From: Cenarchaeum sp.
GTDB taxonomy: Archaea; Thermoproteota; Nitrososphaeria; Nitrososphaerales; Nitrosopumilaceae
Direction of reading: 5' to 3'
Length of the DNA stretch: 64,000 nucleotides
NCBI GenBank assembly: GCA_963693095.2
Contig: OY843768.1
Span: 1,152,001 to 1,216,000 of the forward strand
How positions within the stretch are numbered: position 1 is the first letter of the stretch; each line of letters begins with the position of its first letter. A model generated the notes under the pieces. It made no database searches, had not been told where the DNA came from, and saw only the letters and a list, made by a program, of their open reading frames with translations. Below, piece after piece: positions 41,917 through 49,959 of the stretch. The translations under genes were made by a program, and so were the position numbers.

Positions 41917-42756
41917 ATGCTCAACGAGGTGTATCGGCACGCCATGGAGAACAGGGAGAGGCTAGTCGGCTCGCTGGGCAACTATGGCGACATTGTGGAT
42001 GAGGCAAGGCGCCGCTGGACATGCCACGAGGCGCCGCGCAGGGAGCGTCCCGAGACGCTCGGCGTGGACGGAAGCTGCAACAGGATATCGTACCAGGGCT
42101 TGGAGATCTGGGTGTCCACCGCAGTGGCCGCATCGCCAGACGGCCGGATTGTGGAAGGCATGACGCCGAGGATGGGCATAGGGCGCAACACGAAACTGCA
42201 TGACACGATGCGCCAGATGGAGGCCGACGCGTGCGCCAAGGCGTCGGACCTCGCCGAGATCGTCCTCGTGGACGGCTCGCTGCGCACAGTCTTTATCGCC
42301 GATGACGAGGGCTCAAGGAACGACCTCTTGCGCCTCCTGCGCGGCAACGAGACGCGGATCATATTTGTCTCAAAGACATCCGAGGTCGACTTTGAGTTTG
42401 GCGACATGGGCGCAATTGCCGGCGACATTTACTATTACGGGCTGGCAAGCTGCGAGCCGGGGTTTAGCGACATTCTAGTAAAGGAGGCGCCGCGCACAAG
42501 CATGCCGATATCCTCGACATATGCGCGCCTTGCGCGCTCGGCACCGCTCATGAAGGTCGAGATGCTCGGCGACGGCATAGGAGAGGGTGACGTTCGCGGC
42601 CTCCTCGCGCAGCTGGGAGCGCAGTGCGCAGGAGGGTACCCGCAGGCGCTGCGGCAGGCCCACAACGAGTGCACGATCACCAACGACACGATGGACGCGA
42701 TTGCCGGAATATTTGGAATCAGCGGCGCAGTTGGCTCGAGGGCGATCCTGCAATGA
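41917..42756 (+). CDS. nurA: DNA double-strand-break repair nuclease NurA
   Basis: GVDGS, LVDGSL, SKTS, GYP.AL..AH; first gene of nurA-herA-mre11-rad50. Confidence 0.88.
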   Translation: MLNEVYRHAMENRERLVGSLGNYGDIVDEARRRWTCHEAPRRERPETLGVDGSCNRISYQGLEIWVSTAVAASPDGRIVEGMTPRMGIGRNTKLHDTMRQMEADACAKASDLAEIVLVDGSLRTVFIADDEGSRNDLLRLLRGNETRIIFVSKTSEVDFEFGDMGAIAGDIYYYGLASCEPGFSDILVKEAPRTSMPISSTYARLARSAPLMKVEMLGDGIGEGDVRGLLAQLGAQCAGGYPQALRQAHNECTITNDTMDAIAGIFGISGAVGSRAILQ

Positions 42757-45451: not shown

Positions 45452-48400
45452 TTATCGAAGTCGAGCTCGTGGACTTTTTGTCGCATGGCACAACAAGCGT
45501 AAAATTTGGTCCCGGAATGAACGTCATAGTCGGGCCCAACGGTGCCGGCAAGTCAAGCATTGTTGATGCAATAACGTTCGCGTTCTTTGGCAAGCACACG
45601 CGCAAGGTGAACAAGCTGCTCATACGCCACGGTGCCACGTCAGGATACGCAACGGTGATCTTTGAGGTTGGAGACAGGCGATTCATGGCCACAAGAAAGC
45701 TAAAGACGGGTGGTGCCGCAACGCCCACGCTGTACGAATGGTCAGACAAGACATGGGTCAATGTGGCCGCAGGCGAACGAAGGCAGATGGACGAGTCAAC
45801 GACGCGCGTGATTGAGGACATTGTCGGTATGGACTTTGAAAAGATGCAGATAGCGTCAATAATAAGGCAGGGCGAGCTGGCCGACATAGTGCGCGAGTCG
45901 CCCAAGGAGTTCAAGACGCGCATCAACGACATTATCGGGAACAGTGACCTTGATGTGGCCGATGGAATGATGGCCGACCTGCTTGCGGGGTTCCGCAACA
46001 GCATTCGTGACAGGCTTGGGCATGATGACCTGCACCTGCCCACGATCACCGCCGAACTCGAGGATGACAGGGCCGAGTCCCAAAAGGCCGGCGCCGAGAT
46101 GCGAGCGCTAGCCGCCGAGCGCGCAGAGGCCGAGGCTGGGATAAAGGCGCTGGAGGACGAGGCCTCGCGCGCCGAGGAAGGCGCGAGGGCCAGGGGAGAG
46201 CTCGAGGCAAGGAGCGCCGAGCTCGCAAAGTATGCGAGTGAGGCGGGCCGCGAGGCCGCAGCCGACAGGGACAGGATCGCCGGCGAGGCCGCCGAGTGCC
46301 GCAGGCGCCTCGGCGAGTGCGAGGCCGGCGGTGGCGGCGGCGCTGATGCCATGAGGTCGCGCGCGGCCGCTATCGAGGCCGAGCTCGCACGCGCCGAGGA
46401 GGGCTCGAGGGCCAGGGGAGAGCTCGAGGCAAGGGGTGCCGAGCTCGCAAAGTATGCGAGTGAGGCGGGCCGCGAGGCCGCAGGCGACAGGGACAGGATC
46501 GCCGGCGAGGCCGCCGAGTGCCGCAGGCGCCTCGGCGAGTGCGAGGCCGGCGGTGGCGGCGGCGCTGATGCCATGAGGTCGCGCGCGGCCGCCGTCGAGG
46601 CCGAGCTCACACGCGCCGAGGAAGGCGCGAGGGCCAGTGGCGAGCTAGATGTGAGGAGAAAGGAGCTCGCCGGACATGCGAAGCAGAGGGGTCGCGAGGC
46701 CGCCGCCGACAGGGACAGGATCGCTGGCGTGGCCGCCGAGTGCCGCAGTCTCCTTGATGTTGCCCGGACCGCCGGAGAGGTGGCCACAAGGCTCGAGGAG
46801 GCGCGGCATGAGTTGGAGGCCGAGGCAGAGCTTGTGACCTCCGATGAAAAAAAGACGGCAGCTCTGGAGGAACAGACTGTTATTGCAGGCAGGCTCACAC
46901 TAAAAGACGGCAAGTGTCCCGTATGCGACTCGCGCGTGAGCAGCCTAAACCCACTGTTCGCAATAGAGCACATCAAGGACGAGATGGAGCGCACCCTGGC
47001 AGACACAAGGGTTCACAAGGAGGCCGTGAAACGACACACCTCTAGGATTGACGAGCTCACAGTGCAGGAGAGGCAGGCAATGAAGGCAAAGAGCGCACTC
47101 GATGCGCACAATGTGAGCAGTGTCGATGACATTGAGGCCATGTCCAAAAGGGCCGTCGCGCTAGAAGAGACGATCAGCATGGCCGAGGCGTGCGCGCGCG
47201 GCGACTGGCAGGCCGGCGCGGGCATCGACTCGCAGGCCAGGGCGCATTGCGAGGCCATCGCGTCTCTGGAGGAGACGGCAGGGCGCGCCGGCGCGCGGCC
47301 AGTCGAGGAGCTCGAGTCCGAGCTCACAGCAGTGCGCCATGCGATCGACGCAGTGACGTTCCTAGAGGCCCACTCGGTGGGCGGCGCGGCTGACATTGAC
47401 GCAATGGAGCGTAGGGCCGAGGCGCTCGGAGCAGTGGCCGAGATGGCCGAGGCGTGTGCGCGCGGCGACTGGCAGGCCGGCGCGGGCATCGACTCGCAGG
47501 CCAGGGCGCACTGCGAGGCCATCGCGGCCCTGGAGGAGAGGGTCGCCGGCGCCGGCGGGCGGCCAGCAGGGGAGATCAGGGCCGAGCTCGAGGCCGTGCG
47601 GCGCGCGATCGACGCAGCAACGTTCCTGGAGGCGCACTCGGTGGGCGGCGCGGCAGACATCGAGGACATGGAGCGCAAGGCCGAGGGGCTAGACGCCGTG
47701 GTGGGCATGGCCGAGGCGTGCGCGCGCGGCGACTGGCAGGCCGGCGCGGGCATCGACTCGCAGGCCAGGGCGCACTGCGAGGCCATCGCGGCCCTGGAGG
47801 AGACGGCAGGACGCGCCGGCGGGAGGGGCGTCGCCGAGATCACCGCAGAGCTCAAGGACGCAAAGGCCGCCCTAGACGGCGTAAACCGGAGGCACGGCGG
47901 CGCCGAACAGCGCGCAAGGGCGCTCGCCGACAGCATCTCAAAGAACGGCAGGCTCTCTGCGGAGCTCGAGACGGTCAGCGCGTATGTCAGGAGGCTAGAC
48001 TCGATCAGGGACGTCTTTAGGCGCGACGGGCCGGTGGCGACTAGCATGAGATCATGGGCACTAGACGAGATAGCAAGGGGAAGCACCGAGCACCTGGGCC
48101 TGCTTGACACGAGAATAAACAGGATTACGCTCTCAGAGAAGGACAGAAACGTGACAGTAACATGCCATGCCGGAGTCACCACAAGCGGCGTCTACTCGCT
48201 GAGCGGCGGCGAGCAGGTCTGCGTGGCGCTGGCCCTACGCCTCGGAATGGCAAGGCTACTCGGGCCTAGTGGGCCAAGATACGTCATACTCGACGAGCCG
48301 ACTGCGCACCTTGACGAGGAGCGCAGAAAGGCGCTAGCGCACGTGCTCACAAACCTGTCCGGAGCATCTGAGGGAAGGGCGCCCATGCAGTTTATCATGA

Positions 48401-48507
48401 TAACGCATGATGCCGAGATATTTGGCGAGGCGCCAGTGGAGAGGTGCTATAGGTTTGAGCCCGGCGAGCGCGGGACCGTTGTGTCAGAGCTTGGCCGCGG
48501 CGACTAG
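45448..48507 (+). CDS. rad50: Rad50 ATPase with internally triplicated coiled-coil arms
   Basis: GPNGAGKSS, Q-loop RQGE, zinc hook CPVC (~46915), LSGGE, LDEPT, THD. Confidence 0.93.
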   Translation: MIIEVELVDFLSHGTTSVKFGPGMNVIVGPNGAGKSSIVDAITFAFFGKHTRKVNKLLIRHGATSGYATVIFEVGDRRFMATRKLKTGGAATPTLYEWSDKTWVNVAAGERRQMDESTTRVIEDIVGMDFEKMQIASIIRQGELADIVRESPKEFKTRINDIIGNSDLDVADGMMADLLAGFRNSIRDRLGHDDLHLPTITAELEDDRAESQKAGAEMRALAAERAEAEAGIKALEDEASRAEEGARARGELEARSAELAKYASEAGREAAADRDRIAGEAAECRRRLGECEAGGGGGADAMRSRAAAIEAELARAEEGSRARGELEARGAELAKYASEAGREAAGDRDRIAGEAAECRRRLGECEAGGGGGADAMRSRAAAVEAELTRAEEGARASGELDVRRKELAGHAKQRGREAAADRDRIAGVAAECRSLLDVARTAGEVATRLEEARHELEAEAELVTSDEKKTAALEEQTVIAGRLTLKDGKCPVCDSRVSSLNPLFAIEHIKDEMERTLADTRVHKEAVKRHTSRIDELTVQERQAMKAKSALDAHNVSSVDDIEAMSKRAVALEETISMAEACARGDWQAGAGIDSQARAHCEAIASLEETAGRAGARPVEELESELTAVRHAIDAVTFLEAHSVGGAADIDAMERRAEALGAVAEMAEACARGDWQAGAGIDSQARAHCEAIAALEERVAGAGGRPAGEIRAELEAVRRAIDAATFLEAHSVGGAADIEDMERKAEGLDAVVGMAEACARGDWQAGAGIDSQARAHCEAIAALEETAGRAGGRGVAEITAELKDAKAALDGVNRRHGGAEQRARALADSISKNGRLSAELETVSAYVRRLDSIRDVFRRDGPVATSMRSWALDEIARGSTEHLGLLDTRINRITLSEKDRNVTVTCHAGVTTSGVYSLSGGEQVCVALALRLGMARLLGPSGPRYVILDEPTAHLDEERRKALAHVLTNLSGASEGRAPMQFIMITHDAEIFGEAPVERCYRFEPGERGTVVSELGRGD
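46168..46750. repeat. 222-bp (74-aa) tandem repeat, ~2.6-3 copies, N-terminal arm of Rad50
   Basis: CGCGCCGAGGA.GGC recurs at 46168, 46390 and 46612; copies 1 and 2 nearly identical. Confidence 0.92.
47090..47850. repeat. 264-bp (88-aa) tandem repeat x3, C-terminal arm of Rad50
   Basis: ATGGCCGAGGCGTG.GCGCGCGGCGACTGGCAGGCC recurs at 47179, 47443 and 47707. Confidence 0.92.
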
Positions 48508-48992
48508 CCGCCTGTGAGCTTTGCAAATTTTGGGTTCTTGCTCAGGTTTTCCATGAACTCAATGTTGGATAGCGCGACTATTGCAGAGTCGACTACTGGC
48601 TTGTCAGCATCGCCTAGGGCAGACTCTAGGGCCTTGCGCGACTCGGGTGAGCCGATCACCCCAAGCGCAATGGCGGCCTCGTGGCGCACAAACATGCTAG
48701 AGTCCCCAAGGGTTGCGTCTGCTAGCGGCGCCACGCATGACGAGTAGCACATCTGACCTAGCGAAAAGGCCGCCTCGTGGCGCACGAGCTCGTTTGGGTC
48801 ATCCTTGAGCACGCGCGCAATGTGGGGAACCTTGTCCTCGCCCCCAAAGTCCACGAGGATGCAGGTTGCGCGCGTGCGAACCACATAGTCATTGTGGTCT
48901 AGAAGAGCCACAAAATAGCCCGTGTCCTTGGCCTCATACCGTGACTCCATCTCGGCGAACGTGCGCATCCTCTCCTCGGTTACTGCCTGCAA
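48504..48992 (-). CDS. HEAT/PBS-lyase repeat protein (DOHH-like)
   Basis: Two VRHEAA motifs; TTG start at 48992, TATA at ~49018-49025. Confidence 0.85.
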   Translation of the reverse strand: MQAVTEERMRTFAEMESRYEAKDTGYFVALLDHNDYVVRTRATCILVDFGGEDKVPHIARVLKDDPNELVRHEAAFSLGQMCYSSCVAPLADATLGDSSMFVRHEAAIALGVIGSPESRKALESALGDADKPVVDSAIVALSNIEFMENLSKNPKFAKLTGG

Positions 48993-49437
48993 CGGCGCGC
49001 GTCGTCTAGCGCCCCGTATTATACATTGGCAGGCCCGCGTCCAAAACACCCGTGCAGTGCAGATCGATCCATCTTGCAACGATCCTGCCGCAGCAGCCAC
49101 TGCCACGGTGGCGCGCATGGCGACATCTCGTGCCGTGTCAGCCTCCCGCCCGTGTGCTGCCACCTCCCACAATTGCCAACTAGCGGATCATCAACGTTGT
49201 GTCACGAGTGTGCCCTGAGGAGATCGCATGGGCATTGGCGTCAGGGGAGCCAATGTGCCAAGCGCTGCTAGCCATGGTATGCCACGCTGACAGGCCAGAG
49301 CGGCATTTCCAAATTGGTCTAGCGCACCACCTGCCAGACAGCACACATGTGATGACACAGGGGCAACTGTTGTCCAACGAGTCTTCAATGAATTCCTAAA
49401 CCAGTCAGGCGCCTTTGTGATTTTAGCAGCACGTTGG

Positions 49438-49959
49438 CTATGACGCAACAGAGGGCAATCCCATACGCGAGATAGTCATGTCCCTAACCTCGTCAAACCG
49501 CCCGTCAAGATGAGCCTGACCCTTTTCAATATTCACAAGTCTAGAATCAACCACCTGCATTTGATCTGCCCGTTCCTTTCGATCTTGCGCACGCTCGTCC
49601 TGGCGATCCTTGAGATCCTGCGCACGCTCGGCCTGGCGCGCCTTGAGATCCGCCTCACGTTCGTCCTTGTGTGCCTTGAGATCCTTCTCGCGCTCGGCCT
49701 GGCGATCCTTGAGATCCTGCGCACGCTCGGCCTGGCGATCCTTGAGATCCTTCTCGTGCATGACATTTCTGTTCGCGATCTCGCCGTCGAGCTTGTCGCA
49801 CATCTTGTTGATCGCCCCAAGGAACTCCTTCCGGTCTTCCTCACGGTCTTTCTTGCGCTGCTGTTCTGTTGCGCGAGCCCACTTTCGCGTCTCTATTGCG
49901 ACGTACATGATGACTCCGAACAGCGACAGCGCTATTGTGAGGAATGTTGCCTCGATCAC
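49438..49959 (-). CDS. Membrane-anchored coiled-coil protein with 11-aa repeats
   Basis: Hydrophobic N-terminus FLTIALSLFGVIMYVAI; DLKDRQAERAQ-type repeats x5; TATA-like TTATATTGAAAA upstream. Confidence 0.75.
   Translation of the reverse strand: MIEATFLTIALSLFGVIMYVAIETRKWARATEQQRKKDREEDRKEFLGAINKMCDKLDGEIANRNVMHEKDLKDRQAERAQDLKDRQAEREKDLKAHKDEREADLKARQAERAQDLKDRQDERAQDRKERADQMQVVDSRLVNIEKGQAHLDGRFDEVRDMTISRMGLPSVAS
49585..49755. repeat. Imperfect 33-bp tandem repeat x~5
   Basis: CCTTGAGATCC recurs with a 33-bp period. Confidence 0.85.

Follow-up and report, generated by a model that had tools for sequence, protein, structure and literature searches.

The rad50 gene and its two repeat arrays

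We analysed a window of 64,000 nucleotides (nt) from a Cenarchaeum sp. genome (NCBI GenBank assembly GCA_963693095.2, contig OY843768.1, positions 1,152,001 to 1,216,000 of the forward strand) and focused on its rad50 gene, whose product carries tandem repeats on both strands of a predicted coiled-coil arm. The gene encodes a protein of 1019 amino acids (aa), called P0001 below; its genome is called G000. A Pfam SMC_N match covered aa 2–1004 of P0001. The head was split by a long insert, with the Walker A motif and the Q-loop (Q141) on the N-terminal side and the signature, the Walker B motif and the H-loop (ITHD, aa 985–988) on the C-terminal side. The middle of the insert holds a CPVC motif, which is a candidate zinc hook of the Rad50 type; its residues C490, P491 and C493 were invariant in 70 aligned sequences. 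The solved chains closest by sequence were archaeal Rad50 proteins (3aux, 1.5e-29; 5f3w, 2.9e-29; 3qku, 2.9e-19), and SMC heads matched far more weakly (~1e-7). Foldseek aligned the whole AlphaFold2 model of P0001 to full-length SMC5/6, condensin and Chaetomium Rad50 (E ~1e-20). By all features tested, P0001 is a true Rad50.

Repeat finding located an array on each side of the hook. The N array, before the hook, holds three copies of a 222 nt (74 aa) unit (46153–46818), and the C array, after it, three copies of a 264 nt (88 aa) unit (47179–47970). Tandem Repeats Finder reported the N array with a period of 222 nt and 2.6 copies (46168–46748, 89% matches, score 938) and the C array with a period of 264 nt and 2.6 copies (47177–47857, 84% matches, score 977). 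Each period is divisible by 3 and neither array breaks the reading frame; the N and C units are unrelated in sequence to each other. A self off-diagonal scan gave scores of 617 and 520 for P0001 and of 247 and 226 for the protein of a related genome, G004; as a chance control, 14 of 14 other orthologues scored 67 or less. The first-pass annotation of this DNA had described both triplications and attributed them to two separate duplications. All three methods recovered the repeats, and the two unrelated in-frame arrays, one per strand of the antiparallel arm, agree with separate duplications. Its estimate of ~695 aa for a protein lacking two copies of each unit was also confirmed (1019 − 148 − 176 = 695), as were its Gly-rich breaks, found as GGGGG at aa 294–298 and 368–372 and as QAGAG within every C unit.

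The high DNA identity that it had reported between copies was true of only part of each unit. N copies 1 and 2 were near-identical past their first ~60 nt, and a core of ~100 nt in the C unit was ~100% identical in all three copies. Identity was otherwise mosaic, with 66–83% for the remaining copies: the third N copy resembled the others in its first ~150 nt only, and C copies 2 and 3 were 83% and 66% identical to copy 1, the flanks of the core ranging from 50 to 90%. The units are of low complexity (A 27%, E 17%, R 16%, G 13%). Their 3.5-residue hydrophobic periodicity was modestly above that of shuffled sequences (mean power mostly 10–30, null median 6.4) and was not used as evidence.

Table 1. 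Features of the rad50 locus, in window coordinates
Feature	Start	End	Strand	Basis or remark
nurA, 279 aa	41917	42756	+	Pfam NurA 3.8e-10
herA	42624	44306	+	Pfam DUF87/HerA 1e-38 and HAS-barrel
mre11, 382 aa	44303	45451	+	Pfam Metallophos 2.4e-12; 4-nt overlap with rad50 start
rad50, 1019 aa (P0001; genome G000)	45448	48507	+	List of open reading frames; Pfam SMC_N, AAA_23, SbcC_Walker_B
Walker A GPNGAGKS, aa 29–36	45532	45555	+	Motif; invariant in two family alignments
N-arm unit copy 1 (222 nt, 74 aa)	46153	46374	+	Repeat finding
GGGGG break, N strand, aa 294–298	46327	46341	+	Non-helical in AlphaFold2 model
N-arm unit copy 2	46375	46596	+	Repeat finding; 95% identical to copy 1
GGGGG break, N strand, aa 368–372	46549	46563	+	Non-helical in AlphaFold2 model
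N-arm unit copy 3, last-type	46597	46818	+	Repeat finding; diverged tail, 68% identical to copy 1
Candidate zinc-hook motif CPVC, aa 490–493	46915	46926	+	Motif; between N and C arrays
C-arm unit copy 1 (264 nt, 88 aa)	47179	47442	+	Repeat finding
HSVGG break, C strand, aa 642–646	47371	47385	+	Motif, models; predicted beside N break aa 368–372
C-arm unit copy 2	47443	47706	+	Repeat finding
HSVGG break, C strand, aa 730–734	47635	47649	+	Motif, models; predicted beside N break aa 294–298
C-arm unit copy 3, last-type	47707	47970	+	Repeat finding; first ~150 nt like other copies, tail diverged
ATP-binding cassette (ABC) signature LSGGE, aa 918–922	48199	48213	+	Motif
Walker B VILDEP, aa 946–951	48283	48300	+	Motif

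The tandem copies of G000 might have been made by the assembler, a concern that the first-pass annotation had itself raised. Assembly is difficult across tandem repeats of 222–264 nt whose cores are nearly identical, and related strains in the same samples (loose ends at 46331) could mislead assembly. Contigs covering the stretch are present in four runs of one study, whose read sets are possibly the assembly's own source. Unitigs of runs X2 and X3 crossed, without any difference, the N1/N2 junction (46341–46467), the N2/N3 junction and the hook into C1 (46563–47206), and the C2/C3 junction (47510–47734). Three of the four internal junctions were thus spanned, and the C1/C2 junction (47442/47443) was bridged by no listed piece; bins 47286–47439 of X2 were without cover, which we did not count as a finding. 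The k-mer depth of the C core was 3.0 times that of its flank in both runs, in which other strains are rare (225.4 against 75.4 in X2, 976.6 against 326.6 in X3), and the part common to N1 and N2 stood at ~1.7–1.9 times its surroundings (125 against 70–73, and 600 against 310–319). No joint that skips a repeat copy was found among the contigs of the four runs, from which rare variants are dropped. The threefold core depth and the junction-spanning unitigs in two read sets argue that the three copies are not an assembly artefact. Moreover, the copies differ mutually at many sites, and other assemblies have a like architecture (3+3 in protein P0002, 2+2 in the one-contig genome G004). We therefore regard an artefact in G000 as exceedingly improbable.

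The samples of runs X1–X3 and X5 hold related strains, in whose loose ends at 46331 we found coding sequence for the 77-aa-unit linkers of proteins P0003 and P0002. Run X1 contains a second variant contig of similar depth with 20 differences (the variation in X1–X3 and X5 lies in the window regions at 46331 and 47960–48194). Species with two and with three copies per strand may co-occur in the same samples.

By Pfam matches, the gene order is nurA-herA-mre11-rad50, with rad50 closing the cluster. The listed herA open reading frame (ORF; GTG at 42624) overlaps nurA by ~130 nt, and its true start is probably a downstream ATG giving MSDERRGF. A gene for a HEAT-repeat protein (48504–49172, minus strand, HEAT_2 2.1e-22) converges onto the rad50 stop codon. 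Beyond it, a 173-aa ORF (49438–49959, minus strand), for which a Pfam search gave no match, contains a 33-nt tandem repeat in 5.4 copies (49574–49751) that encodes an 11-aa repeat of the DLKDRQAERAQ kind. The host genome is 99.55% complete. Archaeal AmoA was present and MCR alpha was not found in it, so a methanogen host was dropped and the host is taken to be an ammonia-oxidising archaeon.

Copy number among relatives and the history of the units

Copies were counted in all eight genus-level proteins (Table 2), with EC as the anchor motif of the N unit and GDW as that of the C unit. The two counts were equal in six of the eight and never differed by more than one. Within the genus, the gene was present in three assemblies, all of them balanced (G003, G004 and G000, at 1+1, 2+2 and 3+3); Rad50 was not found with this query in two other genomes of the genus, which are 72% and 84% complete. 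The distances from head to first unit, from last unit to hook, from hook to first C unit and from last C unit to the end were constant in all eight proteins. Differences in unit length between species (73, 74 or 77 aa in N; 87 or 88 aa in C) fell in the predicted breaks between helices.

Table 2. Copies of the N and C units in Rad50 proteins of the genus
Protein	Source	Length (aa)	N copies	C copies
P0001	This window (G000)	1019	3 (74 aa)	3 (88 aa)
P0002		1023	3 (77 aa)	3 (87 aa)
P0003	Genome G004	859	2	2
P0004		853	2	2
P0006		855	2	2
P0005	Metagenome	928	3	2
P0007	Metagenome	767	2	1
P0008	Genome G003	687	1	1

The baseline of the family is short. Its 61 proteins in the protein database span 679–705 aa. 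A Rad50 match was present in 141 of the 201 family genomes scanned, and every end-to-end match outside the genus was one collinear piece of 2031–2085 nt; only G000 and G004 were split by insertions. (The scan included the unpublished genomes G108 and G109, and the statement on collinearity is independent of both.) The ancestral Rad50 of the family would be a protein of one module and ~690 aa, with no repeats. A homologue search with the arm of P0006 returned six proteins, all already in our set, and no new variants. A scan of metagenome loci, made with overly general patterns (one was VGPNGAGK), yielded no close relatives among 43 loci.

The two unbalanced proteins, P0005 and P0007, are intact ORFs on metagenome contigs of 58.9 and 14.4 kb. 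P0005 (3+2) is the same as P0006 (2+2) outside the repeats, and its extra N copy differs from the neighbouring copy at several residues. The single C copy of P0007 has its crossover in a stretch of ~17 residues that both parent copies share. These copy differences and the crossover site argue against a trivial artefact, although the assembler may have collapsed or expanded copies in either protein. At a variable-number repeat locus of the contingency type, copy number would be polymorphic within one population; P0005 and P0006, both from metagenome assemblies, may point to such a locus, and the contigs of the four runs, which drop rare variants, showed no copy-skipping joint.

In a tree of the non-repeat parts, the expanded proteins formed a group whose sister was the 1+1 protein, and this group fell into two clades: (P0001, P0002, P0003) and (P0004, (P0007, (P0005 = P0006))). 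In trees of the units, first-type and last-type copies were orthologous across species within each clade. In the clade of P0004–P0007, the N-first copies were grouped at 95/98 and the N-last copies at 85/82; the C-first copies of P0001–P0003 were grouped at 94/100, and the third C copy of P0001 fell with the second of P0003 at 80/75. This orthology indicates that the 2+2 state predates those species. The junction motifs, which are common to both clades, suggest a single origin of the duplication before the clades split, a point that the tree does not settle.

The middle copies were chimeras of their neighbours. When read from joint to joint, the second N copy of G000 was N3-like at its start (0.97) and N1-like in the remainder (0.97–1.0), and P0005, in its middle N copy, and P0007, in its only C copy, showed the same kind of chimera. 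Such chimeras point to unequal crossing-over in a two-copy array. Gene conversion has acted as well. Orthologous parts of G000 and G004 were 83–87% identical (71–78% at third positions); within G004, however, the cores of the two old N copies were 100% identical to each other, as were those of the two old C copies, and in G000 the C core was ~100% identical in all three copies. High identity between copies therefore cannot date the duplications, and we rejected divergence as an unreliable guide to which third copy, N or C, arose first, conversion being evident.

Other variation was noticed in Rad50 proteins outside the genus. P0070 (826 aa, 38% identity), a more distant Rad50, has insertions of ~67 and ~65 aa that directly flank the hook on both sides (alignment columns ~505–680); its arm is thus also extended on two sides, but elsewhere along the arm and with no such tandem repeats. 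An 821-aa Rad50 from another family of the order (L015, genome G032) has no clear internal repeat (best off-diagonal score 67), and its length indicates that arm length varies between families of the order too. Proteins of other genera (L004, L006–L010, L012 and L013) have a second CxxC (ECKPCF) ~58 aa before the CPVC hook (columns ~446–455); this genus has only EC at that site, but two Cys per C unit around a conserved GDW...ID loop. A zinc or disulfide clasp between the N-unit and C-unit Cys was considered and dropped: the other genera have no C-strand Cys, and the joint distances do not match.

Predicted pairing of the two strands

AlphaFold2 modelled P0001 with a predicted local distance difference test score (pLDDT) of 81.1 and a predicted template modelling score (pTM) of 0.42. 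The N-strand helices spanned aa 194–293, 299–317, 326–367, 373–440 and 442–480, and were interrupted by both GGGGG runs and by TAG (~aa 441). On the C strand, a helix at aa 506–553 was followed in each unit by helices of ~25, 6+18 and 23 residues, which were parted by a GDW loop, a Gly/Arg loop and the HSVGG break. The AlphaFold2 model of the 1+1 protein (62 sequences) had breaks at the same motifs and an arm pLDDT of 81–92, so that the joints pre-exist in the baseline form.

We then compared N unit 2 (aa 294–372) and C unit 2 (aa 642–734) in a complex prediction. The interaction prediction score from aligned errors (ipSAE) was 0.64, as against 0.01 for the best of three controls; 51 of the 78 solved complexes attained this 0.64 mark, as did 2 of the 108 mismatched pairs. 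At least 95% of contacts recurred between runs, and the partner pLDDT was 86. The predicted contacts were antiparallel and joined N 298–362 with C 645–728 (contact pairs 355:653, 351:657, 348:660, 344:664, 337:670 and 326:695). Their register, with N and C positions summing to ~1008, was close to the ~1014 that a count of helices outward from the hook gives for N2:C2 and far from that of N2:C1 or N2:C3 (±88). Antiparallel contacts over the full length would set each GGGGG break beside an HSVGG break. The prediction supports pairing of the N unit with the C unit along its full length, in line with the antiparallel pairing of the two arms on which the first-pass annotation had built. Together, the helices of the two models, the Foldseek matches to SMC proteins and the N2:C2 contacts predict an intramolecular antiparallel coiled-coil arm.

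A different fold could be imagined for the same segments, in which the rod is not lengthened and a unit, or an N and C pair, packs instead as a compact bundle of helices or a flexible knob at the side of a short arm. The helices of the C unit (~25, 24 and 23 residues) could form a three-helix bundle, and the pLDDT of the middle module is low. N unit 3, in contrast, was predicted as one continuous helix of 68 residues (pLDDT 80–91), and the N2:C2 contacts ran antiparallel over 65 N-strand and 84 C-strand residues, unlike those of a compact bundle. In the 1+1 protein, whose arm was modelled with a pLDDT of 81–92, these segments also account for most of the arm. We judge such a bundle or knob to be quite improbable.

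With boundaries taken from AlphaFold2, the strands measured 139 aa (N) and 177 aa (C) in the 1+1 form and 287 aa and 351 aa in the 3+3 form. The rise of an alpha helix is 1.48 Å per residue, and at this rise the ~65–69 N-strand residues of one module correspond to ~10 nm of rod. Each module would consist of ~69 helical N-strand residues and a Gly-rich break (73–77 aa in all) paired with a C half-module of three shorter helices and loops (87–88 aa), and facing breaks would close each module end. At one, two and three modules, the predicted arm would then measure ~21, 32 and 43 nm and would have one, two and three flexible joints, respectively.

A proposed two-strand arm module and comparison with other arms

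We think it probable that these proteins share a repeatable two-strand arm module. Its count would shift by unequal crossing-over at two arrays, conversion would homogenise the copies, pairing would keep the strands in balance, and an imbalance of one step would be tolerated at least transiently. Tandem duplication of each half-module, in frame and within part of one genus, may have raised the count from 1 to 2 and later to 3, with unequal crossing-over or slippage as the likely mechanism and two separate events per step, and gene conversion would keep the copies similar. Equal numbers would be favoured, since each strand needs a partner, and a one-unit imbalance would be a variant that is corrected by a second event or lost.

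Balance between the strands could instead be a product of inheritance and chance, if the Ala/Glu/Arg-rich helical insertions are tolerated on either strand and the repeats are neutrally unstable. Unbalanced 3+2 and 2+1 ORFs do exist, a handful of independent events would suffice, and the third N and third C copies of G000 differ in apparent age. The units are also of low complexity and lie between flexible linkers, so that an unpaired unit could loop out. Neutral instability fits less well with a difference of 0 or 1 between the strands in eight of eight proteins, with equality in six of them and with balance in every one of the G003, G004 and G000 assemblies. Every step up also takes two separate events at two places. 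The predicted full-length pairing also implies that an unpaired unit would bare ~65 interface residues. On this evidence we find neutral instability unlikely, and we retain the two-strand module with pairing-dependent balance.

Several observations weigh against that module. Two of the seven expanded proteins are unbalanced with intact reading frames, which suggests that imbalance is at least not quickly lethal, barring errors of metagenome assembly. The independent events are few (approximately two matched steps and two single steps), and the branching among P0001, P0002 and P0003 was left unsettled by the tree. The middle C copy of G000 was 0.70–0.90 identical to its parents and the middle N copy 0.93–1.0; judged from these values, the third N and third C copies would not be simultaneous, unless conversion blurs the picture. 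In the AlphaFold2 model, pLDDT in the middle module fell to 53–71 (aa 290–370) and 48–74 (aa 610–710), and an extra break appeared at aa 318–325. The complex score is the model's own confidence and may reflect a likeness to antiparallel coiled coils, which are well represented among solved structures; nor can that prediction tell which C copy joins which N copy, and a close paralogue would also pass. Finally, the raw strands are unequal even in the baseline form (N 139 aa, C 177 aa).

The first-pass annotation had regarded the extension as recent and the two duplications as co-selected, or one as quickly compensated. Recency fits only the third copies; the 2+2 state is older than the species, and the identity between copies is partly due to gene conversion. 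Co-selection is consistent with the three balanced assemblies, and the small number of events tempers it. The annotation had named relatives with unequal but functional arms as evidence that would contradict it. Intact 3N+2C and 2N+1C ORFs in metagenome assemblies go part of the way towards this, beside balance in six of eight proteins.

The protein resembles the archaeal Mre11-Rad50 of Methanocaldococcus jannaschii and Pyrococcus furiosus (3aux, 3av0, 3qku, 1ii8) in its split ABC head, antiparallel coiled coil, CxxC hook, mre11 neighbour and herA/nurA cluster. It departs from the archaeal norm in two respects: the family baseline is short (~690 aa, strands of 139 and 177 aa), and this genus has re-lengthened the arm by tandem copies on each strand. 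For comparison, a review gives arm lengths of ~100 Å in phage, 250 Å in bacteria, 300 Å in archaea and 600 Å in eukaryotes (PMC7752040).

A closer parallel is found in Smc. In Buermann et al. 2017 (PMC5344682), engineered Smc was functional only at arm lengths with a 91-aa period, natural SMC arm lengths had modes at 163, 238, 341, 423 and 515 aa, and the importance of periodic elements for Rad50 was called unclear. As in those Smc arms, the arms described here change in discrete steps and on both strands together. Mean strand lengths of ~158, 240 and 319 aa resemble the first three SMC modes and are separated by 81–82 aa (the mean of 73–77 and 87–88), a step that contains ~65–72 helical residues. 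This step is near, and not equal to, the 91 aa reported for Smc, and only the step is comparable, as the boundaries here come from AlphaFold2. Being Gly-rich and possibly flexible, the joints of these arms could relax a superhelical-phase rule. One might go further and propose that Rad50 arms follow an Smc-like rule of quantised length. The quantum would be the two-strand module of ~81 aa (~10 nm), reached by one-strand steps (1+1, 2+1, 2+2, 3+2, 3+3); the unbalanced forms would be intermediates caught in passing, and the mean strands would fall on the first three SMC modes. We offer this extension tentatively, as conceivable and on the whole doubtful.

The copy number of one arm module is nearly all that distinguishes these closely related natural proteins, which form a natural series of arm lengths. 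They provide ready-made constructs of 687, 767, 855, 928 and 1019 aa, with which arm length, strand balance and joints could be set against rod formation, ATPase-nuclease coupling and DNA tethering. They also suggest a simple genetic route by which a fold-back coiled coil may change its length, namely unequal crossing-over and gene conversion at two coupled arrays. Required and permitted arm lengths are known from engineered Smc, and PMC5344682 calls the matter unclear for Rad50.

Full-text literature searches of limited coverage found no earlier account of a Rad50 or SMC arm with matched tandem duplications. What is new here is the modular, stepwise extension of the arm within one genus, together with the existence of unbalanced forms. 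The nearest experimental counterpart is in yeast, where matched truncations of the Rad50 coiled coil impair function (Hohl et al. 2011, as cited in PMC5344682). Both strands were altered together there, as in the proteins described here, and arm length matters for function in yeast. Unlike the yeast laboratory deletions, the arms of this genus are natural extensions that persist in genomes.

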